From Neobacillus sp. (GTDB lineage: Bacteria; Bacillota; Bacilli; Bacillales; Cytobacillaceae), in assembly GCA_040797665.1 (NCBI GenBank), contig JBFNER010000020.1, positions 9,124-73,123 on the forward strand: a stretch of 64,000 nucleotides of DNA, given 5' to 3'. Made by a program: the position numbers and the translations under genes. The number at the start of each line of letters is the position of its first letter. The first letter of the stretch is position 1. The notes below the pieces were generated by a model, which did no database searches, was not told the origin of the DNA, and saw only the letters and a list, made by a program, of their open reading frames with translations. Of the stretch, positions 1 through 30,463 are shown one piece after another.

Positions 1-330
1 TACGTTGTTGATTCAGGAAACCAAAGAGTCCAAGTATTTAATAAAGATGGAGAGTTCGTAAGCATTATTAATGGCTCAAAAGGCGGAGGCGGTTCAGCTT
101 TTGTAAATCCGAGGGGAATTGGTATTGACCAACGAGGGATTATCTATGTTGTAAGCAATCTAACCCATATTATTTATGGATTTAACCAAGAGGGTAATCA
201 AGTATTTCAATTTGGATCAATGGGAGAGGCTAATGGCCAGTTCTATTTACCAAACGGATTGTTTATTGATGAAAAAGACAACGTCTATATTACAGATACA
301 CTAAACCAAAGGGTTTCTGTATTTAAGTAG
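1..330 (+). CDS. NHL-repeat beta-propeller protein, C-terminal fragment (5' end lies outside the window)
   Basis: Frame 1 is open from base 1 to TAG 328-330. The translation YVVDSGNQRVQVFNKDGEF...GQFYLPNGLFIDEKDNVYITDTLNQRVSVFK shows repeated NHL-type units (VxDxxNxRVxVF ... GxFxxPxGi). Confidence 0.75.
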   Translation, partial: YVVDSGNQRVQVFNKDGEFVSIINGSKGGGGSAFVNPRGIGIDQRGIIYVVSNLTHIIYGFNQEGNQVFQFGSMGEANGQFYLPNGLFIDEKDNVYITDTLNQRVSVFK

Positions 331-467
331 AGATACAACAAATTTATATATTAAAGGGGGTGGTTGATAGAAAGATAAATTGATTGCATAGATTTCCCAT
401 TATATGAAATACCTAGACAATTAAAAAAGAGAGAAAAAAGAGAGAGATTTATTGGGAGGTTTTAAGA

Positions 468-2144
468 GTGAAAAAATTTAGTTTTAGTCTAATATTTGCA
501 ATGTTGCTCCTTAGCATGTTTGCTGTAGTAGCCTCGGCGGAATTTGATAACGAAGAAGCTAATCTGCCGATTACAGTTGAGAATGCAAATCCAAATGCTA
601 ATAAAACAACTGAAGGTATCAATACAAACGACGGCTCAACATTTGGTAGTGTTATCAAGTCCGAAGATATGAGAGATAATCACGGTGTGCAAGGTGACCA
701 AAAAACTCACGGATCTTACCAAAATAACACTAACGCTTGTGCAAGCTGTCACCAAACACATACATCAAAAGCTAGACAGTTATTATTTGCTGATAGCACC
801 TATAATACTTGTACAGCATGTCATGACGGTACATTAGGTTTTTACAATGTATTTGAAAATGGAGAAGATTATTTTAACTCCGGATCTACTGCTGGAACAT
901 TTGGCGGTACACATTCTGGGAACATGAGTGTTCACTTATCTACAGGAGCAGTTCAAGTTAAAGCTGCACCAGGTGGAAATAAAACGTCTACTGACACAGC
1001 TTCATGGGGCGGTTCTTTTACTTGTGCTAGCTGCCATGCTCCACACGGATCTTACAGCAGCCGTTTATTACATTACAACCCGGCCAACATGGGGAACACA
1101 GCACCTGAACTAGGTGGAAATAAAGCAGTTAAAATTGATGTTGTTAATTATGCTGATCGTAACACAGGTGTGTCTGCAACTTCTGATAAATTCAGAGCGG
1201 TTAGAGCCACAAAGGCTGAACATGCTTTAACTGATGCTAAATATGATAGTATCCCGGTAGATGCAGTTATCATTATGGTTTATGAGAAAAACTCTGGTAA
1301 TACTGCTTATGCAAAAACAACAAATCCATGGTTATATGGTTATAGTTCAACATCAAATGGCCGAAACTATCAATCACGACTATTTACAGTAACCAAAGAT
1401 CAAATTAGTACAGTATTAAATGCTGATGGCACAATTAAAGGTTATGTTGCAGCAAACGATTATACAAATGCAGTCATTGACCAAAACGATTATAAGAATG
1501 GTGCAGGTATATTAGCATTTAAATATGACAAAGGTCTAGTTTATGCAAAAACAGATGAAGGAAAAGCATTACTAAATAGTGCACTTTCAGCTGATATCGG
1601 ACGTGCTTATGCTGTAACATTAAAACTTGATGCTGTACCTGGTGCAGTTTCTGATGTTGTAACCAAGCATGATGTTTCTGCATTATGGGCTTCTGGTGGA
1701 AACGGTCCTCAAGTATCTCAATGGTGTTCTACTTGTCATACTGACTACCTATTCTCTTCAAGTTGGAATGGTGCTACAAGTAAGCATGGCAACTATAATA
1801 GTGAAAAGTATTATGGACATACAACAAGTAGTGCAACATATACTTGCTTACGCTGTCACTTTGCACACGGTACTGATGTTGAAATCATGGTAGATGGAGA
1901 TGGAGCTACTATTCATGATTTACAAAAACCAACAACTGAAACATTAGGTAAAGGCTGGACAGAAGAGGTAGCAAAAGATTATATGCTTGACAGGAACCCT
2001 TCTTCAGCACTTAAGAAGTTCACTAACATGTCTGGATGTTGGGCTTGTCATAACAGCTCTAAGGCTGCATCATTGAAGAATACAAACCGTGATGAACTTC
2101 ACCCAGATGGTATGATCCCTGATCCATCTACCAAAAAGTATTAA
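468..2144 (+). CDS. Secreted hexahaem c-type cytochrome (6 CxxCH), OmcS-like motif order
   Basis: GTG start 8 nt after GGGAGG. Signal peptide MKKFSFSLIFAMLLLSMFAVVASA. Motifs are CASCH, CTACH, CASCH, CSTCH, CLRCH and CWACH. All 12 cysteines lie in CxxCH motifs. Doubled-CXXCH pattern CxxCHxxH...CxxCHDG is present. Confidence 0.85.
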   Translation: MKKFSFSLIFAMLLLSMFAVVASAEFDNEEANLPITVENANPNANKTTEGINTNDGSTFGSVIKSEDMRDNHGVQGDQKTHGSYQNNTNACASCHQTHTSKARQLLFADSTYNTCTACHDGTLGFYNVFENGEDYFNSGSTAGTFGGTHSGNMSVHLSTGAVQVKAAPGGNKTSTDTASWGGSFTCASCHAPHGSYSSRLLHYNPANMGNTAPELGGNKAVKIDVVNYADRNTGVSATSDKFRAVRATKAEHALTDAKYDSIPVDAVIIMVYEKNSGNTAYAKTTNPWLYGYSSTSNGRNYQSRLFTVTKDQISTVLNADGTIKGYVAANDYTNAVIDQNDYKNGAGILAFKYDKGLVYAKTDEGKALLNSALSADIGRAYAVTLKLDAVPGAVSDVVTKHDVSALWASGGNGPQVSQWCSTCHTDYLFSSSWNGATSKHGNYNSEKYYGHTTSSATYTCLRCHFAHGTDVEIMVDGDGATIHDLQKPTTETLGKGWTEEVAKDYMLDRNPSSALKKFTNMSGCWACHNSSKAASLKNTNRDELHPDGMIPDPSTKKY

Positions 2145-2197
2145 AAAAGCTAAAGATTAGCGGCAACTAATCTTAGCTAAAAGGGAAATGAGAATTT

Positions 2198-2234
2198 AGT
2201 ATAAGGTGTTATGCTCAGCATAGCACCTTATACT
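2198..2234 (+). terminator. Long hairpin downstream of the hexahaem gene (possible intrinsic terminator)
   Basis: agtataaggtg (2198-2208) pairs perfectly with caccttatact (2224-2234). The trailing T-tract is weak. Confidence 0.4.
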
Positions 2235-2334
2235 CATTTCTAGATAATCCTAATGCTAATGAAAAGTGAGATTAATCGTCAAATAATATGATTACATTTT
2301 TACATTGATAATATTATATATCCACTATATTCAC

Positions 2335-2508: not shown

Positions 2509-4824
2509 ATGAGACGAGGAGGACTCCTGCATAAAACGAAGGTACATATTCTTATTGTTTTTGTTTTATGTTTTCAATGGTTAGGATCCTACCATTTATT
2601 AAATATAACATCAGCTAATGATGAAGTCCCTGTTACTACAGAACCCAATTTAACGATTGATTCGCCGATAACAAATAGTGTCCTAGAGCAGACTACGATC
2701 AAAATTTCTGGGACTGCTCAAAACTTTTTAAGCGATGTATCCGTTATGATCATAAGCGGGTCAAAACAATTCGGTCCAGTGGGAGTAAAAGATGGAACTT
2801 GGAGCATTGAGGTGGACTTACAAACAGTTGGTACTCATAGTTTCTATGCTGTAGCTTCAGACTCTGATGGGACGCCTTTTAATTCGAATGTTATTCAAGT
2901 AACCATTGTAACTCCGACAGACACAACACCTCCAGAGGTCACTTTTGTTTTACCAGTGGAAGGCGCAATTACCAAGTATCCTTCTATTGAAGTTACAACC
3001 GAACCGTTTTCGAGGGTTGAATTTTGTATCAATTGTACAGAGCTTAACGGGTTAGTAACAGGAGATTGGAAATCAATTCCTGCAAACAGTGATGGGAAAT
3101 GGATATTGACAGACACAGGCTTACTAGATGGTAAACACACCATTTATGCAAGAGCAATTGATGCTGCTGGCAATGTTGGTCCTTATCAAAAGCGTACTTT
3201 TACTTTAGATAAAACCCGTCCTATCGTATCACCAAATGTATACCCGAAACAGGACATGACGCAGGTGCCGGTTGGTGTAGATACAAAAATAAAGGTTACG
3301 GTAATAGATTCAACATCCATTAAACTATCAGAAATCAACAAAAGCATTATAGTATCTAGTTCAAATGGTTCTCCTGTTTCTGGGAAAATTGAATATGATA
3401 ATAACACCAAACTACTTACTTTTACTCCAGAAAAAGAATGGGCTTATAGCACAAAGTACCATGTTATGGTTAGTCCGCTTGGGTTGATAGATGAGGCAGG
3501 CAATAATGCCTTTCCTCGGTTATGGTCTTTCACAACAGAAACTCGTCCAGGAGTAGTGGTTGACAACAAAAAACAGTATTCCTTGACCTATAACGGAGAA
3601 AATTTTCATCGTGAAAGTCCACATGCCATCTATGCTTCTAATGTGAACACTTGTGCAAATTGTCACAGTACTCACGTGGCGGGCAGCCCAAATTTATTGA
3701 ATCAGAGCAATGGGGCTGAACCCCAACCTAATAATAATCTATATGTAGATGATTATTGTATGGCCTGTCATGATGGAACCGTAGCACCAAAACATGAGAA
3801 TAGTGATAGTGCCAATAAGCATGATGCAGCAATCAGCAGCATTTCAGGAAAACCTAATGGCAGCTCCTGCTCTAGCTGCCATGATCCCCATGCGGATTGG
3901 TCAGAAGAAAATCCAAATTTAGCACAGGGGCATATTGTCTATACCCATACGGTTGAAAATCCTATTAATCCAGAAAAGCCGCGTGGACAGATTAGCTCAA
4001 AAGAATATATGTGTGAATCCTGTCACGAATCAGATAGTGCTAAGAAGATAAGGGAAGCTGTTGGATACATTGTTTATACACACAAAGTAGATAATCCTAT
4101 TGATCCAGAAAAGCCAACTGGAAAAATTAGCAGCAAGGACCAGACGTGTGAGTCATGCCATGAATCAGATCTTGATAAAAAGATAGAGGAAGCACTTTTT
4201 CAGGCAGGCACGGATGGTTATCGTCTCTTCCAATATAAAAAATCAACAACAGCTATTGGAATATATGAAGATTATGACCTTTGCCTTCGATGCCACAATC
4301 AAAGTTTTAAAACAAAATATGAGGCAACTCCAGATATAGGACAGTACTACAATTACTTGTCAAAAAAATATATTTATGACAATTTTGATAATGTAACGAC
4401 GTTTTCCAATCGTGATCTAACAACGGAAAAAACTAATTCTGGACATATCATAAAGGCACAGGATGGCAGCCTTTTAGCGGGACAGATTCCATGTGCAGAG
4501 TGTCATGATACCCATGGATCAAATAATATTAAACAGCTAAAAACTTTGATTGGACATGAAAACCCTAAGCCGTTTGAAGCACTTACCGGTGATTGGGATG
4601 CTGCTAAAGAAAGAGTGTTTTGTATAACATGTCATAACGGCGAGACAGGTATATATGGTATAACTGGTACAGCACTTTTTGATAAAACAACGGGAATAAC
4701 AATTGACCCAGCTAAAACGGGTCATAATAGAGACAATAAAGAAGCATGTTCGAAATGCCACAGCAATAACGGTTCATTTATTGAAGCGGCACATTCTCCA
4801 AAGAGGATAAAAGTACTGCCGTAA
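2509..4824 (+). CDS. Nonahaem c-type cytochrome with N-terminal signal/anchor and Ig-like stalk domains
   Basis: ATG follows AGAGGGG. A hydrophobic N-terminus is followed by about 330 aa of Ig-like (Big/SbsA-like) sequence. Nine CxxCH motifs follow (CANCH, CMACH, CSSCH, CESCH x2, CLRCH, CAECH, CITCH, CSKCH). Confidence 0.85.
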   Translation: MRRGGLLHKTKVHILIVFVLCFQWLGSYHLLNITSANDEVPVTTEPNLTIDSPITNSVLEQTTIKISGTAQNFLSDVSVMIISGSKQFGPVGVKDGTWSIEVDLQTVGTHSFYAVASDSDGTPFNSNVIQVTIVTPTDTTPPEVTFVLPVEGAITKYPSIEVTTEPFSRVEFCINCTELNGLVTGDWKSIPANSDGKWILTDTGLLDGKHTIYARAIDAAGNVGPYQKRTFTLDKTRPIVSPNVYPKQDMTQVPVGVDTKIKVTVIDSTSIKLSEINKSIIVSSSNGSPVSGKIEYDNNTKLLTFTPEKEWAYSTKYHVMVSPLGLIDEAGNNAFPRLWSFTTETRPGVVVDNKKQYSLTYNGENFHRESPHAIYASNVNTCANCHSTHVAGSPNLLNQSNGAEPQPNNNLYVDDYCMACHDGTVAPKHENSDSANKHDAAISSISGKPNGSSCSSCHDPHADWSEENPNLAQGHIVYTHTVENPINPEKPRGQISSKEYMCESCHESDSAKKIREAVGYIVYTHKVDNPIDPEKPTGKISSKDQTCESCHESDLDKKIEEALFQAGTDGYRLFQYKKSTTAIGIYEDYDLCLRCHNQSFKTKYEATPDIGQYYNYLSKKYIYDNFDNVTTFSNRDLTTEKTNSGHIIKAQDGSLLAGQIPCAECHDTHGSNNIKQLKTLIGHENPKPFEALTGDWDAAKERVFCITCHNGETGIYGITGTALFDKTTGITIDPAKTGHNRDNKEACSKCHSNNGSFIEAAHSPKRIKVLP
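3928..4197 (+). repeat. In-frame tandem duplication, 2 x 135 bp (45 aa), each copy carrying one CESCH haem site
   Basis: Unit 1 is GHIVYTHTVENPINPEKPRGQISSKEYMCESCHESDSAKKIREAV. Unit 2 is GYIVYTHKVDNPIDPEKPTGKISSKDQTCESCHESDLDKKIEEAL. Confidence 0.9.
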
Positions 4825-5195: not shown

Positions 5196-7142
5196 GTGTC
5201 CGAAAAATGGGGAAGTTATAGGTTAAGAACGAAACAAATCATTATTCTATTTTTAGTAATTTCTACTGCAATTGTACTCAGCACCTTCATGGTCTCGGCG
5301 TCAGATACTTATTACTCAAGTTACTACCCAGCTAAGAACTCCACTTTGGCCGTTTCAAACACAAAAGTTACAGTTAATATTAAAAGTGTTAATGAATTGA
5401 ATAGTTCCAGTGTTTTACTTAAGGTGAACGGCGAGCCAGTTCAAGCATCTTTCGTTCCTAAAAGCAATACAGGGGGCAAGGAAGGTACAATCAGTTATAA
5501 TGCAACCAATCTTAAGGATGGTGTTAACACTATTGAAGTAAGGATGAGTGACAAAGCAGATCCACCAAACCTGTTTAGTGATTCTTGGACATTTACCGTT
5601 GCAGAACCGCCAAAGATTTTAGATGTGACTCCTGCTAACAATAGTGAACAGGCTACCTTAAATCAAATTTCTGCTGTTGTAACGGATAATAGTGGAATCA
5701 ATTGGAATACAGCTCTACTTAAAATAAATAATGTGGTAAAGGGCCCGCTGGAGATTAACAAGGAAACCGGAACCATTACCTATACTAATTCCTTTCCGAC
5801 AGGAACCCATACTGCTCTTTTAGAAATAACTGATAGTTATGGAAAAAAGGCAACTAAGACTTGGAGATTCATTGTGGATTCTGCTCCACCTGAAATTAGT
5901 TATCTAAATTATTTCAAAGATGGCATGACCATTACAGATGGTCCACTCAAGATTAGTATGGGGCTAAGGGATTTAGTGGACATCAAGGAAAATGTAACTC
6001 TAAAATTAAACGGAGAAATACTGCCAATTAATTTTCAATATCAAGGATATTATTATTATGGGGAGTATATTGTCACATCTAAAAAAACAGCAACCTTAAC
6101 ATATGAGAAAATGCTACCAAACGGTGCTCAAACACTAGAATTATTTATGGAAGATATTTTTGGGAATCATACCACTCGCAAATTTAATTTCACTGTTGCA
6201 TTAAAGCCAAAGATTTCTGAAGTAACACCGCTGAAATATGGTGAAGAAAATTTAAGACCTACGATTTCAGCTGTGGTAACATCCCCAAATGGTTCGATTA
6301 ACCCTGATTCCATTGCTGTAAAGGTGGATAACGAAGAGGTTGATTTTAATTTTGACCAAAATAAGGGGCTAATAAGTTATACGCCATCAAAGGACTTAAA
6401 AAATGAAAGCTACCATACAGTTAATATTTCGGTAGCCGACCAAACAGGGCTCTCTTTAGTTAGAGAGTGGAAGTTCTATTCCAATACTTATACCGAAATG
6501 GATGATTCTAACCCTGAAGTTTGTACAACATGCCATGATGCTTCAAGCACAGGTGGTACTAATGGGGTTCTGGAGAATGTCCATAAAGCAAAATTAAGCT
6601 TTAGTGGAACGCATGTACAAAACAACTGTGAAAATTGTCATAAATATATAACCGCTGATGCTGGGTGCAGTCAATGTCATGATGACCCTGAAGGTGATGA
6701 TTACAAGTATGCTCCGCACGGGTCTACACCAACCATCCACTATCAGGCTACAAACTTTGATCCAAATTCGCCGATTCGGGTGGCGGTTAACCGATCCATG
6801 AACGATTGTATCCTTTGTCACCAGCCGGGATCTTTGATTAAGGGATATCAAGGCTATCAAACGACACCTACAAGAACACTTAGTAATCACGATATTCCTG
6901 AACTCCACAAAACCGAAGATACCTGTACGGAGTGTCACGCAAAGTCACTTACTCGTGAACACGCCAGGGAAGATAGAACAGATAAAAATAATAACCCGAT
7001 TACATGTAACACATGTCACCAAAGTACTGATACTATGGTAGTAACAGCTATCAATGAAAAGAATACATCTTGTAAGGCATGTCATGAGCCGCATAAAGAT
7101 GTACACAGCGATTGTAAAAAATGCCATGTTAATAGTTATTAA
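5196..7142 (+). CDS. Octahaem c-type cytochrome with N-terminal signal/anchor and multiple Ig-like domains
   Basis: GTG starts 8 nt after AAGGAGG. A hydrophobic N-terminus is followed by about 400 aa of repeated Ig-like modules. Eight CxxCH motifs sit in the last ~210 aa (CTTCH, CENCH, CSQCH, CILCH, CTECH, CNTCH, CKACH, CKKCH). Confidence 0.85.
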   Translation: MSEKWGSYRLRTKQIIILFLVISTAIVLSTFMVSASDTYYSSYYPAKNSTLAVSNTKVTVNIKSVNELNSSSVLLKVNGEPVQASFVPKSNTGGKEGTISYNATNLKDGVNTIEVRMSDKADPPNLFSDSWTFTVAEPPKILDVTPANNSEQATLNQISAVVTDNSGINWNTALLKINNVVKGPLEINKETGTITYTNSFPTGTHTALLEITDSYGKKATKTWRFIVDSAPPEISYLNYFKDGMTITDGPLKISMGLRDLVDIKENVTLKLNGEILPINFQYQGYYYYGEYIVTSKKTATLTYEKMLPNGAQTLELFMEDIFGNHTTRKFNFTVALKPKISEVTPLKYGEENLRPTISAVVTSPNGSINPDSIAVKVDNEEVDFNFDQNKGLISYTPSKDLKNESYHTVNISVADQTGLSLVREWKFYSNTYTEMDDSNPEVCTTCHDASSTGGTNGVLENVHKAKLSFSGTHVQNNCENCHKYITADAGCSQCHDDPEGDDYKYAPHGSTPTIHYQATNFDPNSPIRVAVNRSMNDCILCHQPGSLIKGYQGYQTTPTRTLSNHDIPELHKTEDTCTECHAKSLTREHAREDRTDKNNNPITCNTCHQSTDTMVVTAINEKNTSCKACHEPHKDVHSDCKKCHVNSY

Positions 7143-7439: not shown

Positions 7440-7507
7440 GGATGAGGAACTAATGATCGAAATGCATAAACTACGGTAAAGACCGAATCATTATAGAGGT
7501 GACGAAA

Positions 7508-8609
7508 ATGGAATTAGCAGAAATTCGTAATGAACTTGAGAAAACAGCTAAAAAATTAGCGGACTTTAGGGGGTCTCTTTGACCTAGAGAATAAAGAAGC
7601 CAGGATTGCTGAGCTTGATGATACGATGCTTCATCCTGACTTCTGGAATGACCAGCAGGCAGCACAGATTGTAATCAGTGAAGCAAATGCCTTGAAGGAC
7701 CAGGTAAATGAGTTTAAGGATTTATTCGAAACGTTTGAAAATCTTGAAGTGTCCTACGAGTTAGTTAAAGAAGAAAGTGATGCTGAGCTTCAGGCTGAAC
7801 TAGAGGATGAACTCAAAAGGCTTACAACACGTTTAAGTGACTTCGAGCTTCAACTGCTCCTAAGTGAAGAATATGATAAACATAATGCCATACTAGAGCT
7901 GCATCCTGGTGCAGGTGGAACAGAGTCACAGGACTGGGGTTCCATGCTTCTCCGAATGTATACACGTTGGGCGGAGAAGAAGGGCTTTAAGGTGGAAACA
8001 CTTGATTACTTACCAGGGGATGAAGCTGGGATTAAAAGTGTAACCTTAGCGATTAGAGGTCACAATGCTTACGGTTACCTAAAGGCTGAAAAGGGCGTAC
8101 ACAGGCTAGTTAGGATTTCACCATTCGATGCTTCAGGACGTCGTCATACATCCTTCGTATCCTGTGAAGTCATGCCTGAATTTAATGATGAAATTCAAAT
8201 CGAGGTTCGTACAGAAGATTTGAAAATTGATACGTACCGTGCCAGCGGGGCTGGAGGACAGCATATCAATACAACAGATTCAGCCGTCAGGATTACTCAC
8301 ACGCCAACTGGAGTTGTTGTTACCTGTCAGTCTGAGCGTTCACAGATCAAAAACCGTGAAGCCGCGATGAAAATGCTGAAGGCAAAGCTTTATCAACGCG
8401 AAATCGAGCAGCAGGAAAAAGAGTTGCTCGAAATTCGTGGTGAGCAAAAGGAAATCGGCTGGGGAAGCCAGATTCGCTCTTACGTCTTTCATCCATATTC
8501 GATGGTCAAAGACCACCGAACTAGTGCTGAAAGTGGAAACGTCCAGGCCGTAATGGACGGAGAACTAGATATGTTTATCGACGCTTACCTGCGTTCTAGA
8601 ATATCTTAA
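7508..8609 (+). CDS. prfB: Peptide chain release factor 2, expressed via programmed +1 frameshift: join(7508..7579,7581..8609)
   Basis: ATG 7508 opens a 24-codon ORF ending CTT TGA C (TGA 7580-7582). The +1 frame continues into an RF2 body with SPF and GGQ motifs. Total length is about 366 aa. Confidence 0.95.
7568..7583 (+). promoter_or_regulatory. prfB +1 frameshift site (internal SD-like AGGGGG plus CTT TGA C slippery/stop context)
   Basis: The sequence AGGGGGTCTCTTTGAC matches the conserved RF2 autoregulatory frameshift cassette. Confidence 0.9.
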
Positions 8610-9748: not shown

Positions 9749-10078
9749 ATGAAAAACAAGCTGCTTAAAATGTTAGTGGGTGTTGGTCTTGTCATGGGCT
9801 TAGCTGCATGCGGTGGTGGCGGTGACGATACTGCTAGCGGTGGAACGGATTCAGCTCATGCGGATGCTGAAAAGATCTACAATCAAAAGTGCTCAAGCTG
9901 TCACGGCGACAATCTTAAAGGTGGAATGGGTCCTGAATTAACAGCGGTTGGGGCAAATTATTCACAAGATGAAATTGCTGATATCATTCAAAATGGTACT
10001 CAAGGCGGTATGCCAGCGGGTCTTATTTCTGGAGATGACCTTGACAAAGTAGCTGAATGGTTAGCAACTAAAAAGTAA
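9749..10078 (+). CDS. cccB: Cytochrome c-551, lipoprotein, monohaem
   Basis: Lipobox LAAC, a single CSSCH, a distal Met region (GGMPAG), 109 aa. The position is syntenic. Confidence 0.9.
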
Positions 10079-20890: not shown

Positions 20891-22174
20891 TTGAAAAACA
20901 AACTTCAGCTACTTTTTCTAATCACGATAATTCTAACATTATTCTTAGTTGCTTGTTCAAAAGAAAATGATTCAGCTAGTCACGGTAGTACAGATAATAA
21001 TCATACGGACATGAATAAGGAAGGAACAAAGTCAGAAAAAGATACTTCTAGTGGAGTAAAAGATGAGTTCGCTAAGGCACCGACTGAAATGAACCAATAT
21101 GCTGACCAAAATTTGTTATCATTAAATACAAAAAATATTACCCGCTTAAACTCAAGTCAGCCAATTGAAGCAGCAGTGTTAGTTTCTCAAACTATTTTTC
21201 CAGCAACACATAAAGAAAACCAGCCAGGAACTGTGATTTTGGTTCCTTTAGATAATTGGCAAATAGGGTTGGCTTCTGCAAATTTAATTCATCATCCAAA
21301 TAACGGACCCATCCTTTTCATTACGAACGATGGTATTCCAGATCTTACACTGAATGAAATCAAACGATTGAACCCATTGGGAAATACAGAAGGTACACAG
21401 GTAATGGTGATGGGCGCTGTGAATCAATTGATTCTAGATTCTCTAAATCAATATAAAGTAGAAGTTATGAATGAAACGGAGCCTGCAAAATTTGCTGAAG
21501 CAGTTGATAAAAAGTATGCAGAGGTTTCAGGAGGAGAATTCACGAACAGTGTGATTGTGGTTTCAACGGATGAAGAAGCAAAGCTATTTTCATTAGCTGC
21601 CGCAAACTGGATTGCCCATATGCCAGAACCTGTTCTATATGTTACAGCCGAGGATATTCCTGCTGCTACTAAAAGTGCCTTAACCAAAAGAAATAACCCC
21701 AATATCTATGTTTTAGGACCTGAAACAATCATTTCTAATTCAGTAGTTAGTGATTTGAAAAAATACGGAACAGTAACTCGGATTAGTGGTAAGGATGTTA
21801 TCAGCAATTCAATCGAATTTGCGAAGTATAAAGACCAAGCAACTGGTTTTGGGTGGGGGTTAGCTGAGCCAGGTCATGGTTTATCTTTTATTTCGACCGA
21901 AAGTCCAGAACTGGCAATCGCTGCTGCTCCATTTTCCCATTTAGGAAAGCATGCACCGATTATTTGGCTGGATAAAGGGAATGTAACGGAACCAATTTAT
22001 CAATTTATGGCTACGATTAAACCAACCTTCAAGGAAGACCCTACAACAGGTCCTTATAATCATGGATTTATCATCGGAACGCAAACAGATATCACATTTA
22101 CCGTTCAAGGAATACTTGATGATAAATTAGAAATTATCCAAGAAAATGGAGGCGGTCATGGAGGCGGCCACTAA
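20891..22174 (+). CDS. Lipoprotein with three cell-wall-binding-repeat-2 (CWB2)-like modules and a GGGHGGGH tail
   Basis: TTG follows AAGGAGG. Lipobox LVAC. Three ~95-aa modules resemble CW_binding_2 (e.g. VILVPLDNWQIGLASANLIHHPNNGPILFITNDGIPDLTLNEIKRLNP). Confidence 0.65.
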   Translation: MKNKLQLLFLITIILTLFLVACSKENDSASHGSTDNNHTDMNKEGTKSEKDTSSGVKDEFAKAPTEMNQYADQNLLSLNTKNITRLNSSQPIEAAVLVSQTIFPATHKENQPGTVILVPLDNWQIGLASANLIHHPNNGPILFITNDGIPDLTLNEIKRLNPLGNTEGTQVMVMGAVNQLILDSLNQYKVEVMNETEPAKFAEAVDKKYAEVSGGEFTNSVIVVSTDEEAKLFSLAAANWIAHMPEPVLYVTAEDIPAATKSALTKRNNPNIYVLGPETIISNSVVSDLKKYGTVTRISGKDVISNSIEFAKYKDQATGFGWGLAEPGHGLSFISTESPELAIAAAPFSHLGKHAPIIWLDKGNVTEPIYQFMATIKPTFKEDPTTGPYNHGFIIGTQTDITFTVQGILDDKLEIIQENGGGHGGGH

Positions 22175-22206
22175 AAGTTATGGGATAAGAGAAGGGGGAA
22201 GCAGCT

Positions 22207-22818
22207 ATGAAAGTCAAAATTGCTGTTAATGGCGGGATAGGTTTTGGGTCTAAGCTAAATGCAAAGCAACTGCTTGTTCTGGCAAAATATTTACAAGATG
22301 ATGACCTCGAATTAACTACCTTTCAGCAGTTATATATTGAAATACCAGCAGACAATAAGGATGAAATTATTGCAGAATTTGAGGGAGTGGGACTACATTC
22401 CTATTCGGTTGGCAACTATGTGAAAAGTCTAAGAACCTGCAATTTTTGTAAGGGAGAGGAGGAAGAAGGAATGCCTGTCGCAATTGAGCTAAATCAACGA
22501 ATTGCAGGTATTCCTGTCCCTTTTACCTTGAAGCCGGCATATACTGGCTGCCCTGTGGGATGTGGGGAGCCTTTAATCAATGATATTGGGATTATGAAAA
22601 TAAAAGATAGCTACAGTTTATATGTTGGAGGAAAGTCAAAGGGCCAAGATGCAGAGGCAGGTAAATTATTACTTGAGAATCTTAGTCCAGATGAATTATA
22701 TTCAGCGGTTGAACGAATGATCCGTTTTTACAGCGAGCAAGGCAAAAAACGTGAACCATTCTATAAGTTTGTTAATAGAGTAGGTTTCGCTGCCCTACTG
22801 CAAGCAACAGATAGTTAG
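22207..22818 (+). CDS. Small (203 aa) nitrite/sulfite-reductase-like (NIR_SIR) 4Fe-4S/sirohaem-domain protein
   Basis: YTGCPVGCGEPLINDIGI closely resembles the TGCPNGCG...G cluster/sirohaem loop of CysI/NirA. An upstream CNFC pair is present. A ferredoxin-like half-domain lies at the N-terminus. Confidence 0.6.
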   Translation: MKVKIAVNGGIGFGSKLNAKQLLVLAKYLQDDDLELTTFQQLYIEIPADNKDEIIAEFEGVGLHSYSVGNYVKSLRTCNFCKGEEEEGMPVAIELNQRIAGIPVPFTLKPAYTGCPVGCGEPLINDIGIMKIKDSYSLYVGGKSKGQDAEAGKLLLENLSPDELYSAVERMIRFYSEQGKKREPFYKFVNRVGFAALLQATDS

Positions 22819-22853
22819 GTTATTAGGATAAGAATCTTATAGAAGGTCATTTA

Positions 22854-22886
22854 AAAAGCTTGGGGAAGTCCTCAAGCTTTTTGATT
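22854..22886 (+). terminator. Rho-independent terminator
   Basis: aaaagcttg-gggaagtcct-caagctttt followed by TGATTT. Confidence 0.7.
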
Positions 22887-23027
22887 TGCATATATTCGTT
22901 CTAGATAGGAAGCGTATTTTATGTTTTTAAAATTGTTACAAAATCTCGTTAGTTTCTGCACATTCATTTCATACAATCAAAGCAGATTAATTGATCTTTA
23001 CCGAAGGTTAAATAGAGGAGGATTTAT

Positions 23028-23156
23028 ATGAATCATGAACATTTAATGAAATTTAGCGTACGTCAAATGGCAAAGGAGGGAAAGTCAATCAAAAAAACTA
23101 AGATGAAAATATCATTATTGAGTTATATTGCTTTGTGTATAAAAAGACGAAATTAA
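23028..23156 (+). CDS. Possible 42-aa basic small protein
   Basis: Strong RBS AGAGGAGGA lies 7 nt before the ATG. The ORF MNHEHLMKFSVRQMAKEGKSIKKTKMKISLLSYIALCIKRRN is followed by its own terminator. No family recognised. Confidence 0.3.
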   Translation: MNHEHLMKFSVRQMAKEGKSIKKTKMKISLLSYIALCIKRRN

Positions 23157-23183
23157 AAGGGATTGTTCTCATTTTTGAGGACG

Positions 23184-23211
23184 ATCTCTTCTATTTTTAG
23201 AAGAGATTTTT
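23184..23211 (+). terminator. Rho-independent terminator
   Basis: atctcttct-attttt-agaagagat followed by TTTT. Confidence 0.7.
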
Positions 23212-23260
23212 ACAAACTTATGAACAATAATCAATCATTAGGTTACAGACAAATTTAATC

Positions 23261-23283
23261 CATTAAAAATGCATTAAAACTGC
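23261..23283 (+). promoter_or_regulatory. Direct repeat CATTAAAA with 11-bp period (candidate OmpR-type regulator site)
   Basis: CATTAAAAaTG / CATTAAAAcTG at 23261 and 23272, about 80 nt upstream of the 23359 start. Confidence 0.25.
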
Positions 23284-23358
23284 AAACTTTGGCCCTAAAT
23301 TTAACGTAGAAAGCAAAATAACCATGTATTACTCAAATAACTGTTGGAGGTGGAAAAG

Positions 23359-23793
23359 TTGAAAAAAAGTTTTATATCATTATTTGTTTTAGCATTTATC
23401 TTCTCTTTTAATCTATTAGTTTTTGCGGACAAGGGCCATGATGATAGCAAACCTGAATCTTCAGAGGTCACAGAAACGGAAACACAAACGGAAACGGAAA
23501 CTGGGGAGATCGATCATACAAAAGAAGCAGAGGAACATTTAAAAGAGGCGGAGAAACATTCAAAAGAGGCAGAGAAGCATTCTAACGATGCCAATTCACA
23601 TTCTGATGGAAAAGAGAATCAATCTACTGAGGACAAGGAGAAAGAACATGAAGAAGAGGCAGATGATGGACATCATGGCCCGGTAGTTGAAACACCGCCA
23701 AACTATAAAGTATTAGGAACGTATGGAGCGGTGAATCTTTCATTTATCTTAATTGGTGTTTGGACTAAGTGGTTTAGAAGGAAGGGGAAATAG
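23359..23793 (+). CDS. Exported His/Glu/Lys-rich repeat protein with C-terminal membrane anchor
   Basis: TTG 23359 lies 5 nt after GGAGGTGG. Signal peptide, TETETQTETETGE, KEAEEHLKEAEKHSKEAEKHSNDANSHSDG, DDGHHG, then a TM helix plus RRKGK. The stop lies 2 nt before the next start. Confidence 0.6.
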   Translation: MKKSFISLFVLAFIFSFNLLVFADKGHDDSKPESSEVTETETQTETETGEIDHTKEAEEHLKEAEKHSKEAEKHSNDANSHSDGKENQSTEDKEKEHEEEADDGHHGPVVETPPNYKVLGTYGAVNLSFILIGVWTKWFRRKGK

Positions 23794-23795
23794 AC

Positions 23796-25160
23796 ATGGC
23801 AATGCCTGAGAAAAAACTAAGACCAGAAAAGGAACCTTTTGACCTTCTGTCTATTCCGCTGGTTAAAAAATTTGTAAAAAGTAAATGGTATCCCGGAATC
23901 TTTCAATGGATGGTTATTTTTGTATTTTCGGTTATTGTGTTTGAATTGGTAATGGGAACGGTAAATCCGAGTAAAAACTTTGGAACAACAATGACTTGGG
24001 TGTTATGGTGGCCGATTATCCCTATTTTATTTCTAGTAGCGGGTCGTTTCTGGTGTGCAATCTGTCCTTTTGGCAAGCTAAGCGACATCATCAGAAAAAC
24101 AATTGGTGCAAATCGCCCAATGCCTAAGTTTCTAAGAAGATATGGAATATGGTTAATTGATTTATTCTTTATCGCCATTACATATAGTGACCACGTGTGG
24201 GGAATTGTAGAATCGCCACGCGGATCAGGTTACTTGTTGCTGCTATTAGTTACAATGGTTGTCGCAACTTCTGTTTTTTATGAAAGAAGAACATTTTGTA
24301 AGACGCTTTGCTTCCTTGGCGGTCTTGCCGGGAACTATGCGCGTTCTGGAGCCGTAAAAGTACAGGCAACACCAGATATTTGTAAAACCTGTAAGGTTCA
24401 ATCATGCTACAAAGGAACGGAGAAAGTAGAAGGATGTCCGATGTTCCAATTTCCAAGAACAATGGAATCTAGTGCTGAATGCAATATATGTGCAAACTGT
24501 GTGAAAAACTGTCCGTATAACTCGATTAAAATCACAACTCGAGTTCCGACAAAAGAATTATGGGGCTTAAAGAATCCAAAGCTTGAGCATGCTTCCTTAG
24601 CAGCGGTAATTATGGGAATCGTGTTCGTACAAAACATTACCATGCTTGAACCATGGCAGGATATATTAAATGCAATCGGAACGGTTACTGGTACCTCAAA
24701 CTACACTGTCAACTTCACCATCGCTTTTATCATTGCAATGGCGATTCCAATTCTATTATTATTAGGAACTGCAAAAATAGCTTCATCCTTCGGTATGGAA
24801 GGTACAGTTAAAAAGAACTTTACTCGGTTTGGATACGCGATTATTCCTTTAGATCTTGCAGGTCACTTAGGTCACAATCTTTTCCATATCTTCACCGAGG
24901 GTAAAGCAATTTGGTATAACTCAATTGGTTTGTTTGGAGTTCAATCGAATCCTGGCAGCCTGAGTCTTGCCTCAACCCCAACTGTTCAAATGATTCAGTA
25001 TGCGATAATTGTTATTGGACTGATCGGTACAACTTATGTGACGTATAGAATGGGTAAGAACTCATCATTTAAAGCAATGCTCCCATACTATGTACTCATG
25101 TTTGCACTAGCAATTGCTAATATTTATCTATTCTCACTGCCTATGAGTCACAGAGTATAA
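23796..25160 (+). CDS. Integral-membrane polyferredoxin (NapH / CcoG / YccM-like, two 4Fe-4S motifs) with an extra C-terminal TM bundle
   Basis: FWCAICPFG and FCKTLCFLGG membrane-proximal Cys motifs. CKTCKVQSC...GCP and CNICANCVKNCP ferredoxin motifs. About 9-10 TM segments. Confidence 0.75.
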   Translation: MAMPEKKLRPEKEPFDLLSIPLVKKFVKSKWYPGIFQWMVIFVFSVIVFELVMGTVNPSKNFGTTMTWVLWWPIIPILFLVAGRFWCAICPFGKLSDIIRKTIGANRPMPKFLRRYGIWLIDLFFIAITYSDHVWGIVESPRGSGYLLLLLVTMVVATSVFYERRTFCKTLCFLGGLAGNYARSGAVKVQATPDICKTCKVQSCYKGTEKVEGCPMFQFPRTMESSAECNICANCVKNCPYNSIKITTRVPTKELWGLKNPKLEHASLAAVIMGIVFVQNITMLEPWQDILNAIGTVTGTSNYTVNFTIAFIIAMAIPILLLLGTAKIASSFGMEGTVKKNFTRFGYAIIPLDLAGHLGHNLFHIFTEGKAIWYNSIGLFGVQSNPGSLSLASTPTVQMIQYAIIVIGLIGTTYVTYRMGKNSSFKAMLPYYVLMFALAIANIYLFSLPMSHRV

Positions 25161-26779: not shown

Positions 26780-27865
26780 ATGCGTTTTTCCCGTGCTCAG
26801 TTATTAATTGCTCTCATTCTTTTCATAGGGATTTCCAACCATGTGCTCATCATGCCTCACTTGCTTGCAACTGGTAAACGGGATGCATGGATTTCTGTGT
26901 TGGTTGCCTATCCCTTTCTATTGTTTTGGGGGTTTATCCTTTATTTGATTATGAGAAAAAACCCGCAGCGAATATGTCTTTATGACTGGATAGAAGCCCG
27001 GGCAGGCGGTGTAATTTCACGCGTATTAATTTACATCCTTACGGCATATGTTTTCGCGATTAGTGCTATATCTTTTTATGATTTAATTCAATCCGTTAAT
27101 ATTTATTTTTTGCCTCGAACCCCACCCTTTGTTGTCATGCTCCCTTTCCTTTTGATTAGTGCTTGGTCAGCATATAGTGGCTTAAAATCAATAGTCTCTG
27201 TTTCAGCGGTTTTATTGCCGATTGTTTGGATACTAGGAATTTTTGTAGCATGCTTTACTTTTCCAGAAAAAGATTATTCCTATCTTTTTCCAGTCCTTGT
27301 TAACGGTCATCAACCCATCGTAAAAGCGACCGTCATAATTCTTGGGGGGAGCGCGGATTTACTTGTGCTTTTGCTTCTTCAGCACCAGTTAAAGAAATCG
27401 TTTACGTTGTTTAACCTGTTCTTACTCATTACCATTTTAGTTGGTCTAATTCTTGGCCCTACCATGGGCTCATTGTCCTCGTTTGGTCCAGCAGTTGCAG
27501 CAGATATGCGGTTCCCGGCCTTTGAACAATGGCGCCTAATAACCTTGGGAGAGTATATTTCCCATGTTGATTTTATGGCAGTGTTTCAATTATTAAGCGG
27601 TGAAATTATCCGGGTTTCATTAGGACTCTACCTGCTATGGAATCTGGTTAAAAGTCATTCTCCGGCTTCGAATAAAAAGCATGTGTTTTTTGTCGCTTTG
27701 CTTCTTTTAGGATTATTGACAATTATTCCATTAAGTGACATATGGGTTCAAGAGATGGTCGGTAAATTCTTTTACCCAGCGGCGCTGCTTTTTGCGGTGA
27801 TAATTTCATTGGCATTATTAATCATAAGCTATTTGCCACTGAGGAAAGGAGCACAAAACATATGA
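26780..27865 (+). CDS. Spore germinant receptor B subunit (GerAB/APC-type permease)
   Basis: 361 aa, about 10 TM, typical GerxB N-terminus (Q..ALILFIG..NHVLIMPHLL). ATGA overlap with the next gene. Confidence 0.85.
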   Translation: MRFSRAQLLIALILFIGISNHVLIMPHLLATGKRDAWISVLVAYPFLLFWGFILYLIMRKNPQRICLYDWIEARAGGVISRVLIYILTAYVFAISAISFYDLIQSVNIYFLPRTPPFVVMLPFLLISAWSAYSGLKSIVSVSAVLLPIVWILGIFVACFTFPEKDYSYLFPVLVNGHQPIVKATVIILGGSADLLVLLLLQHQLKKSFTLFNLFLLITILVGLILGPTMGSLSSFGPAVAADMRFPAFEQWRLITLGEYISHVDFMAVFQLLSGEIIRVSLGLYLLWNLVKSHSPASNKKHVFFVALLLLGLLTIIPLSDIWVQEMVGKFFYPAALLFAVIISLALLIISYLPLRKGAQNI

Positions 27866-29292: not shown

Positions 29293-29293
29293 T

Positions 29294-30463
29294 ATGAAGC
29301 GTCAATCCAAGATGGTTTGTGCTGTCATCCTTTCATTTTGTCTCCTACTTGTTACGGCTTGTGACCACGACATCGGTGAAATCGAAAATCAAAACTTTGC
29401 AACCGCCATCGGAGTTGATTATCGAGATGGGAAATATTTTGTCTATATTCAAATGCTAGGCTTAAGCTCTGTTGCGAAAAGTGAAGGCGGAAATAAGGAA
29501 CCGCCAGAAATATATGTTTCTGAGACGAGTGGTGCAACGTTTATCGATGCATTTTTTAAAGCTTAGCATACGGGGCAAGAAAAGTTTCTATGGGCCCATG
29601 TCACTGCAATTGTTTTGAGTGAAACTGCACTGGAAAAAGGGCTGGATAGTGTCTTTGATGGCTTGACGCGATACTATGAGTTCCGTCCCACTCCATGGAT
29701 TTTTGGGACAAAAAGTTCAATGGTCGATATCTTATCTACAACTGGATTCTTTAAACAAACGTCATTGAACACGCTTCTTCATAGTCCGAAAAGCTCGTAT
29801 GAGCAGAGCTCTACCATTAGGCCGGTTAAGCTAAATAAATTTGCTCGGGAGTTTTTTGATCCTGGCCGCACCACCTATATACCTTCGCTCACCATTGATG
29901 ATCATCAATGGAAGAATAATAAAAAGGCGGAAGCAAAGTTAATGATTGATGGAGCGTTTTTTCTAGGCAATAAAATATACAAAGGCTATTTTCCATATGA
30001 AAAGTTAAAAGGCATACGCTGGCTGACTTCGGAAACCGTTCGTGCTTCTTTGCTTTTGCCAAGCGAAAAAAATCCAGAATTTATTACGGTGCTAGAAGAC
30101 CAAAAGGTGTATATCGATCCTGTAGAGCACAACGAAAACTTCCATTTTACAATCCATTACCTTGCTAATGGAATTGTGAGTAACCGCATGAAGAACAACA
30201 CGATTAATGTAGAGGAAATGGAGGAGTTCGTAAAGAAAGGGATTGTTGCTGAAGTAAGACAATTATATCAATTAGGTTTGGAACATAATATCGACTTTTT
30301 AAATTTAGAGCACCAGCTTTACAGAAAGCATCATACTGACTGGAAAAAACTAAAAAATCAGGGTTCACTGCTTCAGGAAGACAGCCTTAGATCAATTGAT
30401 GTGAATATCACAATAGAACATTCGGGGTCGTTTAAAAACCGAAAAATTAGGATTAAAGAATAA
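29294..30463 (+). pseudogene. Spore germinant receptor C subunit (GerAC lipoprotein) interrupted by an in-frame TAG at 29564-29566
   Basis: ATG 29294 with lipobox LVTAC. The frame continues unchanged across the TAG (...IDAFFKA*HTGQEKFLWAHVTAIVLSE...) into the 29615-30463 ORF. Both halves are GerAC-like. Confidence 0.8.

Follow-up and report, generated by a model that had tools for sequence, protein, structure and literature searches.

How respiratory electrons pass across the tens of nanometres of peptidoglycan in Gram-positive bacteria is a question with a sole model, a polymer of the cytochrome CwcA from Thermincola, and this model rests on a homology model of an unpurifiable protein. CwcA (Tfer_0075/TherJR_1122; Thermincola ferriacetica and T. 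potens) is a proposed cell-wall cytochrome that was modelled on OmcS; from E. coli it was obtained in insoluble form only, and the homology model leaves its haem 5 free for a ligand in trans (PMC7911101, PMC12203936). Its polymerisation across the peptidoglycan in the manner of OmcS was proposed in 2021, hence the nanowire idea for the hexahaem protein described here is not new. OmcS (GSU2504; PDB 6EF8/6NEF) is the nanowire subunit of Geobacter sulfurreducens, and ligation of its haem 5 in trans has been described in general terms (PMC9473688, PMC7911101). A third described system is SmhB of Carboxydothermus, a dodecahaem cytochrome and weak homologue of TherJR_1122; Gavrilov et al. 2021 (PMC7829351) place next to it a set of Bacillus-type hexahaems to which no function is assigned. 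These 'bacillary hexahemes' were not linked to OmcS in that paper, nor was the Bacillaceae gene cluster described (PMC7829351).

In our case, a window of 64,000 nt from Neobacillus sp. (contig JBFNER010000020.1) encodes a hexahaem c-type cytochrome (Table 1) that is a divergent member of the known CwcA/OmcS kind and, judged from the paper's description of the clade, very probably one of the bacillary hexahemes (PMC7829351). Its sequence and gene neighbourhood suggest that it is probably the Bacillaceae counterpart of CwcA, a Sec-exported protein with six bis-His haems encoded within a Gram-positive cluster for extracellular electron transfer. An earlier note on this DNA correctly described the host as a Gram-positive spore-former: it belongs to the Bacillaceae, and a gerA-type operon for germination lies in the window. 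A protein identical over 100% of its residues occurs in a Neobacillus sp. MAG, and members of the family are annotated in Mesobacillus. For Neobacillus, Mesobacillus or Anaerobacillus, no paper on multihaem cytochromes was found in the library searched.

Table 1 Features of the hexahaem locus and its neighbours (positions in the window)
Feature	Position	Strand	Details
NHL-repeat beta-propeller gene, 3' end	1..330	+	last 109 codons; window begins inside the gene
Shine-Dalgarno sequence GGGAGG	454..459	+	8 nt 5' of the GTG; read directly from the sequence
Hexahaem c-type cytochrome CDS, CwcA/OmcS superfamily, long 'bacillary' form	468..2144	+	558 aa, GTG start
Sec signal peptide	468..539	+	MKKFSFSLIFAMLLLSMFAVVASA; predicted cleavage after ASA; read from the sequence
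N-terminal extension	540..707	+	aa 25-80; conserved NAN..TG.GV...VIKS motifs; absent from OmcS and CwcA
Triheme module	708..1079	+	distal His81; haem 1 C91xxC94H95 + His98; haem 2 C115xxC118H119; distal His156; haem 3 C186xxC189H190 + His193
Haem-free beta-rich insert	1080..1703	+	aa about 205-412; conserved PWLYGY motif; length variable across the family
C-terminal triheme part	1704..2141	+	haem 4 C420xxC423H424 (QWCSTCHTD); distal His451; haem 5 C460xxC463H464 + His467; haem 6 C524xxC527H528; conserved SSALKKFTNM
Two stable hairpins, possible terminator or attenuator	2148..2241	+	RNA fold -41.6 kcal/mol, z = -7.5 vs shuffles
Nonahaem cytochrome	2509..4824	+	771 aa; 9 CxxCH; N-terminal anchor or signal; Ig-like Big_5 and Big_13 (Pfam)
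Octahaem cytochrome	5196..7142	+	648 aa; 8 CxxCH; Ig-like domains, Big_13 (Pfam)

The gene is preceded by the strong ribosome binding site that had been reported for it, and the N-terminus of the family follows the consensus MKKxSxSxL...FAxxAxA. The NCBI gene call (P0001) comprises 542 aa, 16 residues fewer than the 558-aa open reading frame, which is consistent with a start at Met17; the predicted signal peptide would then lose its N-terminal part. Given a cut after ASA24, the mature protein has 534 aa, close to the 530 estimated earlier. Neither a lipobox cysteine nor a wall anchor (LPXTG, SLH, SH3b) is present in the sequence. The composition is rich in small and polar residues as had been observed (T+A+S+G+N = 46%). 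All 12 cysteines lie within six CxxCH motifs, whose flanks read on the translation as previously quoted; 14 of the 20 histidines are additional to the six proximal ones, and the haem-free stretch between haems 3 and 4, put at about 200 aa before, spans 229 residues between His190 and Cys420.

The six CxxCH motifs are kept in 63/63 aligned homologues, so the haem pattern is not due to chance; 61 of these proteins have 12 cysteines and two have 13. The best-conserved block of the family is the first triheme module, with a mean column identity of 0.76. Twelve axial histidines can be assigned (H81/95/98/119/156/190/193/424/451/464/467/528), six proximal and six distal, 11 of them invariant and one at least 90% conserved in the family, which argues for electron-transfer haems that are all bis-His ligated. 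A reading of the protein as a catalytic reductase was rejected in view of the conserved distal histidine on all six haems. The Pfam models that exceed their cut-offs, i.e. PF09699 (Paired_CXXCH_1, at the first triheme module, 55 bits vs 20.6), PF14537 (36.4 bits vs 25) and PF14522 (31.7 bits vs 24.8), are generic and uninformative on function. The MtrC/OmcA-type model for outer-surface decahaems, PF22113, scored 28.2 bits, below its cut-off of 30.

Two regions distinguish the protein, namely the N-terminal extension, which is conserved, and the beta-rich insert, which is confidently modelled and lacks a structural match. AlphaFold2 monomer models were computed for the window protein (63-sequence alignment) and for a short-form homologue (73-sequence alignment). 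The insert was modelled with pLDDT values of 64-98, mostly above 90, as means over blocks of 10 residues, and a Foldseek search of the PDB with this model returned nothing for it at E <= 0.001. At the haem regions, both models are too poor (pLDDT <50) for their fold to be compared with that of OmcS; Foldseek of the PDB gave only noise for either model, with nothing at E <= 0.001. In the long forms of the family, haems 3 and 4 are spaced by 189-321 aa, compared with 99 in OmcS and 68 in CwcA. Within the N-terminal extension, conservation reaches 90% or more at N43, A44, N45, V62 and K64; across the family, 55-180 aa precede the first conserved histidine, and relatives carry additional C-terminal domains.

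CwcA is, like the hexahaem protein, secreted and endowed with 12 cysteines. Its locus was reached through the ImdcA sequence in the supplement of the cwcA paper; an exact search of the genome contigs with the published cwcA reverse primer gave no match. In BLASTP, the window protein aligned with CwcA over haems 1-3 (E 1e-8), and the family profile matched CwcA in hhalign with 97.7% probability (E 1.4e-12). Short family members align with CwcA from end to end, with six haems and six distal histidines in register. The 12 conserved histidines (H30/44/47/69/126/159/162/227/250/289/292/340 in CwcA) are common to CwcA and the hexahaem protein and follow the same order, and haems 1 and 2 are spaced by 24-25 residues.

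For OmcS, the earlier note had proposed a likeness in motif order and flanks, based on six flanks of OmcS, all of which proved correct; the OmcS sequence used for this check agreed with PDB 6ef8_A at 407/407 positions. The resemblance is real, colinear and goes beyond a doubled CxxCH, with OmcS as the top PDB match, but it is remote and lies far below the family level. Two profiles were compared by HMMER with the PDB, one of the hexahaem family (A1) and one of its short members plus CwcA (A3). OmcS was the top match of both, with E 2e-3 for A1 and E 5.3e-6 for A3, the latter in a single stretch in which haems 1-5 are colinear. Fifty OmcS-family proteins scored a median of 15 bits (A1) and 27 bits (A3) in contrast to -18 and -8 bits for NapC controls, a difference of about 34 bits. 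With hhalign, A1 aligned with the OmcS family around haem 3 at E 1e-7 and around haem 4 at E 2.4e-6, A3 at E 3e-20, and the OmcS family with CwcA at E 2e-13. The control alignment of A3 with the NapC family, however, reached E 6e-11. When multihaem families are compared with each other, hhalign gives E-values that are inflated or owed to modules in common; they were therefore discounted, and the HMMER ranks and controls were relied upon. Greedy extension in hhalign threw haems out of register, and only the local cores around haems 3 and 4 are trustworthy. Pairwise BLASTP of the window protein against OmcS yielded only patches of 37 and 28 aa (E 1e-3 and 4e-3), and in a phmmer search of the PDB with this single sequence OmcS was not among the matches. 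The similarity thus stays below the family level as defined by E < 1e-5 with >75% coverage (Portela et al. 2024, PMC10954620). A profile search of 1.84 billion proteins yielded 888 matches for the hexahaem family; compared with the more than 4000 relatives of OmcS found in another protein library (clusters at 90% identity), this number suggests that the profile probably falls short of the OmcS family.

The aligned flanks read APGG...C-SCH-PHG-Y at haem 3 and MS-WC--CHTD at haem 4. All 12 axial histidines of OmcS (H2/13/16/51/110/144/147/243/257/332/335/404) have one-to-one, colinear equivalents, and the distal histidine stands 34 residues ahead of the haem 3 histidine in both proteins. The CxxCHxxH that had been pointed out at haem 1 is the same in the two, with His98 aligned to His16 of OmcS. 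This His16 is reported by Wang et al. 2019 to be the ligand acting in trans. By its profile, the hexahaem protein classifies as a remote homologue of OmcS and as a member of the OmcS superfamily.

These comparisons bear on the reading of the protein as a generic c3-type multihaem cytochrome that resembles OmcS in CxxCH motifs and composition only and has no role in extracellular electron transfer. The protein is named 'cytochrome c3 family protein' in databases, the Pfam models above cut-off are generic ones, the pairwise alignment with OmcS is marginal, and an unrelated multihaem family also scored well in the hhalign control. Against this, HMMER ranked OmcS above every other PDB entry, dozens of multihaem cytochromes among them, the NapC controls scored far lower, non-haem flanks and histidine spacing (e.g. 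that ahead of haem 3) are shared with OmcS, and the gene cluster is syntenic with the experimentally studied extracellular electron transfer cluster of Thermincola. A generic c3 cytochrome is hence very improbable.

Within the window, the genes of the NHL protein, the hexahaem, the nonahaem and the octahaem cytochromes are visible, followed by prfB, yitT, cccB, ftsEX and others. The C-terminus of the NHL protein shares 77% identity with that of Bacillus sp. FJAT-27225 and 28% with Tfer_0074 of Thermincola (E 3e-15 pairwise, 9.5e-14 in a small database), the latter in an end-aligned manner. The nonahaem protein shares a triheme module with the hexahaem family (residues 369-470) and is a candidate surface electron acceptor of the hexahaem protein, and the C-terminal haem region of the octahaem protein aligns with Tfer_0076, the 614-aa cytochrome encoded 3' of cwcA (BLASTP E 5.6e-13). 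Sequence searches of the PDB gave no match for either of the two. The order NapC (10 haems), NapC (12 haems), TPR, NHL, hexahaem and multihaem cytochromes is common to Thermincola, Bacillus sp. FJAT-27225 and Anaerobacillus; the same gene order occurs in Neobacillus sp. PS3-12, and the haem counts given refer to the first three. The position of the hexahaem gene agrees with that of cwcA, from the NHL to the octahaem gene in the window and over the full order in Thermincola and the relatives. From relatives whose hexahaem proteins are 56-77% identical, we infer that two NapC/NirT genes and a TPR gene lie upstream of the NHL gene, beyond the window.

An NHL propeller gene is also located immediately upstream of omcS in Geobacter. 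It is the only overlap with the Geobacter locus; companion genes of the osc type for secretion and assembly were not seen among the genes in the window; a passage in PMC13194489 that cites Shen et al. 2025 states that the osc genes beside the Geobacter cytochrome serve in folding and secretion. Earlier, the hexahaem gene had been called monocistronic, which is not established. The two genes, NHL and hexahaem, share a strand in orthologous clusters and are separated there by 21-150 nt. In the window, the 137-nt gap between them showed no promoter-like site, and this arrangement makes co-transcription at least as likely. At the hairpins 3' of the gene, a consensus terminator scan made no call because of the weak U-run.

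Being a distant relative of OmcS and the local counterpart of CwcA, the hexahaem protein is likely to convey respiratory electrons through the cell wall. The apoprotein would be exported, its signal peptide cut after ASA24, and the system II machinery of Bacillus would attach the haems on the outer side of the membrane; the six haems would form one continuous chain as in OmcS. As to localisation, partners and the direction of electron flow, we infer that the protein may reside in or on the peptidoglycan and relay electrons from the NapC/NirT membrane cytochromes to the nona- and octahaem cytochromes, which may reduce acceptors outside the cell, e.g. electrodes, humics or minerals of Fe(III) or Mn(IV). 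This conserved cluster would comprise a 10-haem and a 12-haem membrane quinol oxidase of the NapC/NirT type, a TPR protein, the NHL beta-propeller, the hexahaem protein and the Ig-domain surface cytochromes.

The lack of a wall anchor means that the protein could simply be released. A non-polymerising, released or loosely bound cytochrome might act as a diffusible shuttle or as terminal reductase for soluble or chelated metals, with the insert serving to bind a substrate or surface. This region varies and is probably exposed, the 3' hairpins permit a separate control of dosage, and for the related SmhB, a secreted protein, the strong inducer was soluble ferric citrate rather than minerals (PMC7829351). 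Conversely, the gene strictly keeps its place next to the NHL gene on one side and the surface cytochromes on the other, as cwcA does, and the haems are apparently all bis-His ligated, which is atypical of a catalytic site. Surface domains such as SH3b and FN3 occur in some homologues, in line with an association with the wall or surface, and the paralogues with wall-binding SH3b domains point to retention in the wall. We consider a released form doubtful and regard the wall-associated counterpart of CwcA as the probable one.

Whether this counterpart would polymerise is a separate matter. Head-to-tail stacking through His98 is possible, at somewhat below an even chance. In its furthest-reaching form, in which His98 ligates haem 5 of the next subunit and long nanowires extend beyond the cell, the OmcS-like polymer is unlikely. 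Such a polymer agrees with the colinear equivalents of all 12 axial histidines, including that of His16, with OmcS as the best PDB match, with the NHL neighbour common to the hexahaem gene and omcS, and with the insolubility of CwcA in E. coli and the open haem 5 of its model (PMC7911101, PMC12203936). The conserved CxxCHxxH and the 12 histidines do not discriminate between filament and monomer, as a monomer requires the same 12. At least one family member (P0470) has no equivalent of His98, a position at which the alignment of 73 sequences (A4) shows about 90% conservation. The extension of about 55 aa in the window protein (up to 180 aa in the family), together with the terminal add-on domains of relatives, might hinder a head-to-tail packing as in OmcS. 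The osc-type genes are not seen in the window, and among the Geobacter paralogues OmcS alone is known to form wires (PMC12977616).

A variant confined to the wall takes the long-form Bacillaceae hexahaem as a true OmcS-type polymer threading the peptidoglycan, its insert decorating the wire or docking it to the peptidoglycan and its assembly depending on the NHL protein. The pair of NHL and hexahaem genes is common to Geobacter, Thermincola and Bacillaceae, and could represent an ancient minimal 'nanowire module' devoid of osc genes. We consider this variant, too, rather unlikely. The NHL propeller, found beside the hexahaem gene in these three distant lineages, is nonetheless a concrete candidate for an assembly or partner factor. 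The gene module of Thermincola recurs in an Anaerobacillus, a Bacillus sp. and two or more Neobacillus genomes, mesophilic and cultivable spore-formers of which several have complete genomes, and these would be easier hosts in which to study polymerisation of the OmcS type in monoderms. If the hexahaem protein is a monomeric relay only, the locus is one more multihaem cytochrome cluster, well annotated.

Compared with the described systems, OmcE (PDB 7TFS) and MtrA (PDB 6R2Q chain A) match the N-terminal triheme module weakly (E about 1e-5), over the first three haems only, and differ in haem counts and architecture. SmhB has 12 haems as opposed to six. OmcS shares with the hexahaem protein six haems in the same order, 12 cysteines confined to the six CxxCH motifs, and similar flanks, especially at haems 3, 4 and 5. 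The haem spacings differ (24/71/234/40/64 in the hexahaem protein, 38/93/99/89/72 in OmcS), and the hexahaem protein adds the large insert, the N-terminal extension and a C-terminal tail of 30 aa, whereas the mature OmcS chain begins one residue ahead of its equivalent of the first conserved histidine. Filaments are formed by OmcS and are hypothetical for the hexahaem protein, and the host of the hexahaem protein is a monoderm which, unlike the host of OmcS, has no outer membrane to cross. CwcA, with 353 aa compared with 558, is devoid of the beta-rich insert, its haem 4 following haem 3 at a spacing of 68 residues, and about 5 residues separate its mature N-terminus from the first conserved histidine in contrast to about 56 in the hexahaem protein. 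The Thermincola cluster contains an extra 17-haem gene, and 14-haem and giant cytochromes are encoded downstream instead of the Ig-domain nona- and octahaem proteins; Thermincola is moreover a thermophile from a class different from that of the Neobacillus host. On the sequence comparison, CwcA of Thermincola is nonetheless a closer and more informative relative than OmcS.

The secreted hexahaem cytochrome of the window contains exactly 12 cysteines, all of them within six CxxCH motifs (residues 91, 115, 186, 420, 460 and 524), and 20 histidines; T, A, S, G and N account for 46% of its composition. A direct count on the sequence thus agrees with the earlier note in all these descriptive points, its term 'monocistronic' excepted. 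The protein shares 100% identity with an entry named 'cytochrome c3 family protein' of a Neobacillus sp. MAG. Homologues were found by the hundreds in Neobacillus, Mesobacillus, Anaerobacillus, unclassified Bacillus species and Bacillota MAGs, and an exhaustive profile search yielded 888 clusters (50% identity) at E <= 1e-3 and 192 at E <= 1e-30. Six CxxCH motifs are present in 63/63 aligned homologues, with 12 cysteines in 61 and 13 in two. Haems 1 and 2 are 24 residues apart in every member of this alignment, and haems 3 and 4 are always widely separated (189-321 residues). Of twelve conserved histidines, eleven never vary and one is kept at a level of at least 90%; they comprise the six proximal residues of the CxxCH motifs and His81, 98, 156, 193, 451 and 467. 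As this number is exactly what six bis-His haems need, the conserved set points to a role in electron transfer rather than catalysis. A released monomeric shuttle or reductase is a less likely rival reading.

The N-terminus (MKKFSFSLIFAMLLLSMFAVVASA followed by EF) was predicted as a classical Sec signal peptide lacking a lipobox, and the family alignment shows its consensus to be kept across homologues. The publicly annotated protein of this MAG (P0001, 542 aa) falls 16 residues short of the open reading frame, which fits a start at Met17 (positions 468-515 skipped) and would cost the protein the N-terminal part of this signal peptide. The GTG at 468, preceded at 8 nt by a GGGAGG Shine-Dalgarno sequence, matches the family consensus N-terminus, and the conservation of the signal peptide argues for GTG as the likely true start instead of the NCBI-implied one 16 codons downstream. 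The claim of a monocistronic gene could not be confirmed: two strong hairpins lie just beyond the stop codon (z = -7.5), yet no promoter-like site was found in the 137-nt gap to the upstream gene, and the two genes are same-strand neighbours in all relatives.

The cytochrome is part of a gene cluster. In Thermincola, where the Thermincola ferriacetica locus of the hexahaem CwcA was located through the NapC/NirT decahaem ImdcA, the order is NapC/NirT with 10 haems (ImdcA), NapC/NirT with 12 haems, a 17-haem cytochrome, TPR, NHL propeller, CwcA and further multihaem cytochromes. Bacillus sp. FJAT-27225 and Anaerobacillus isosaccharinicus, whose hexahaems are 77% and 56% identical to that of the window, encode NapC(10), NapC(12), TPR, NHL, hexahaem and multihaem cytochromes, an order shared by Neobacillus sp. 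PS3-12. The clusters of FJAT-27225 and PS3-12 are placed between secA and prfB; that of the window likewise lies directly ahead of prfB, and its genes upstream of the window start are presumed by analogy with these relatives. The NHL fragment matches the end of Tfer_0074 (E 3e-15 pairwise, 9.5e-14 in a small-database BLAST). Both downstream cytochromes carry their Ig-like domains N-terminally and their haem domains C-terminally. The nonahaem protein contains the triheme module of the hexahaem (H-x9-CxxCHxxH...CxxCH...CxxCHxxH), the octahaem protein resembles the cytochrome downstream of cwcA (E 5.6e-13), and a sequence search of the PDB gave no solved-structure relatives of either.

Features of the window, in window coordinates
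Feature	Position	Strand	Remarks
NHL gene fragment	1-330	+	77% identical to the FJAT-27225 protein
Hexahaem cytochrome CDS	468..2144	+	GTG start, 558 aa
Haem-free beta-rich insert	1080-1703	+	aa about 205-412 of the hexahaem; AlphaFold2
Nonahaem cytochrome	2509-4824	+	9 CxxCH; hydrophobic N-terminal segment; Big_5/Big_13
Octahaem cytochrome	5196-7142	+	8 CxxCH; hydrophobic N-terminal segment; Big_13
prfB (release factor 2)	7499-8609		classical programmed +1 frameshift
prfB ORF0	7499-7582		stops at CTT TGA C (7577-7583)
prfB main PCRF/RF-1 frame	7626-8609 (ORF as listed)		open from CTT TGA C onward
Lipoprotein c-type cytochrome	9749-10078		109 aa; LAAC lipobox; CSSCH
CWB2, NIR_SIR and Fer4_5 genes	20891-25160		
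Spore germination receptor operon	26780-30463		GerAB-type permease, GerA, GerAC

Beyond the cluster, the small lipoprotein cytochrome resembles CccB of B. subtilis and is flanked by yitT and ftsE, as in related genomes. In an unusual trio, a gene with a CWB2 cell-wall-binding domain is followed first by one for a small protein of the NIR_SIR (4Fe-4S/sirohaem) type and then by one for a Fer4_5 membrane protein. The germination receptor operon confirms the host as an endospore former.

A six-bladed NHL-type propeller (about 315-323 aa) immediately upstream of an OmcS-like hexahaem was observed in Geobacter, Thermincola (compared locus L004, 14972-15937) and Bacillaceae. The Geobacter gene, directly upstream of omcS (315 aa; compared locus L007, 6809-7756) and presumably GSU2505, can be aligned along almost all of its length to the NHL proteins of the Gram-positive clusters (E about 1e-11). 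NHL repeats are common, so this match is by itself weak evidence; the notable point is the conservation of the adjacency in three distant lineages. The propeller may act as a conserved partner of the hexahaem or as its assembly factor, and this shared neighbour was not found described in the literature searched.

The insert between haems 3 and 4 was modelled with confidence by AlphaFold2 as a beta-rich domain (block-mean pLDDT mostly > 90), whereas the haem regions failed. It carries an almost invariant PWLYGY motif and differs greatly in length between homologues; a Foldseek search of the PDB found no structural neighbour. Short family members (329-418 aa) lack it, and others have FN3, SH3b or other domains appended at either end. 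The short form of PS3-12 occupies the same slot of the same gene cluster, which marks the insert as an elaboration within the family. No description of this domain was met in the literature, where it was not the target of a search of its own.

The likeness to OmcS, the Geobacter nanowire hexahaem, had been put forward from six OmcS flanks. All six are correct, as the reconstructed OmcS sequence is identical to PDB 6ef8_A (407/407 positions). Pairwise, the resemblance is marginal: OmcS was not among the phmmer matches of the window protein in the PDB, and BLASTP alignments were confined to short stretches at haem 4 (E 1e-3) and haem 3 (E 4e-3), in corresponding order. It stood at the profile level. 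OmcS was the top match of the long-form profile in the whole PDB (E 2e-3; haem 3 on haem 3, haem 4 on haem 4) and again of the profile of short members plus CwcA (E 5.3e-6), in a single alignment from OmcS haem 1 to haem 5; OmcE (1.1e-5) and MtrA (1.8e-5) followed, covering the first three haems only. In a local HMMER control, 50 OmcS-family proteins reached median scores of 15 bits (long-form profile) and 27 bits (short-form profile), against -18 and -8 bits for 20 NapC/NirT multihaem proteins. With hhalign, the long-form profile matched the OmcS family at the haem 3 (E 1e-7) and haem 4 (E 2.4e-6) cores, the short forms with CwcA matched OmcS (E 3e-20, register kept for haems 1-3), and the OmcS family matched CwcA across haems 4-5 (E 2e-13). 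These values are discounted because the control of the short-form profile against the NapC family likewise gave E 6e-11, reflecting either widely shared multihaem modules or inflated statistics. In that control match, haems 4-6 of the hexahaem family, with the stretch W-T/S...A..YM..D...M..C..CH, align to part of the ImdcA/NapC-type decahaems; this may indicate a module common to membrane and wall cytochromes of one cluster, or else hhalign statistics that are unreliable for multihaem proteins.

Regardless of scores, each of the 12 axial-His positions has its counterpart, in unchanged order, in the window protein, CwcA and OmcS. The rival reading of a chance resemblance is unlikely. In both OmcS and the window protein a distal histidine precedes that of haem 3 by exactly 34 residues, and His98 is the counterpart of OmcS His16, which Wang et al. 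in 2019 reportedly described as ligand to haem 5 of the next subunit. Ligation of haem 5 by the neighbouring subunit in OmcS is documented (PMC9473688, PMC7911101). We conclude that the window protein is a remote homologue of OmcS and not a member of the OmcS family proper.

The hexahaem would be exported, receive its haems through system II and reside in or on the peptidoglycan between NapC/NirT and Ig-domain cytochromes as partners. As a secreted all-bis-His hexahaem, it probably takes electrons from the NapC/NirT quinol oxidases of the membrane and hands them on, across or along the peptidoglycan, to surface cytochromes with Ig-like domains, from which they reach acceptors outside the cell. 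Since a subunit the size of OmcS covers no more than a few nanometres, crossing a Gram-positive wall would take several copies. They may be stacked head to tail through His98 in the manner of OmcS, one option that we regard as tentative. A long extracellular nanowire is a less likely rival reading. A simple OmcS-like packing is opposed by a conserved stretch of about 55 aa added at the N-terminus (in relatives up to 180 aa, including an FN3 domain), the C-terminal tail of 30 aa and the lack of a His98 equivalent in one or more members of the family (P0470).

That a Gram-positive bacterium may build a wire of OmcS-like hexahaems has been published before, for CwcA (Tfer_0075 / TherJR_1122), an OmcS homologue with 18% identity (Faustino et al. 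2021; PMC7911101), whose stacking into a peptidoglycan-crossing wire was proposed there and repeated in a 2025 review (PMC12203936). CwcA (353 aa) matched the window protein over haems 1-3 (BLASTP E 1e-8), the family profile with E 1.4e-12 and the short members end to end. A 'bacillary hexahemes' clade with no assigned function was placed beside SmhB, a weak TherJR_1122 homologue (Gavrilov et al. 2021; PMC7829351); this gene cluster was not found described for Neobacillus, Mesobacillus or Anaerobacillus in the literature searched. The finding offers mesophilic, cultivable hosts for testing the wall-wire hypothesis; any filaments are hypothetical. The window hexahaem is a new, divergent member of an already described cytochrome type, and the electron-relay role assigned to it is the one proposed for CwcA.
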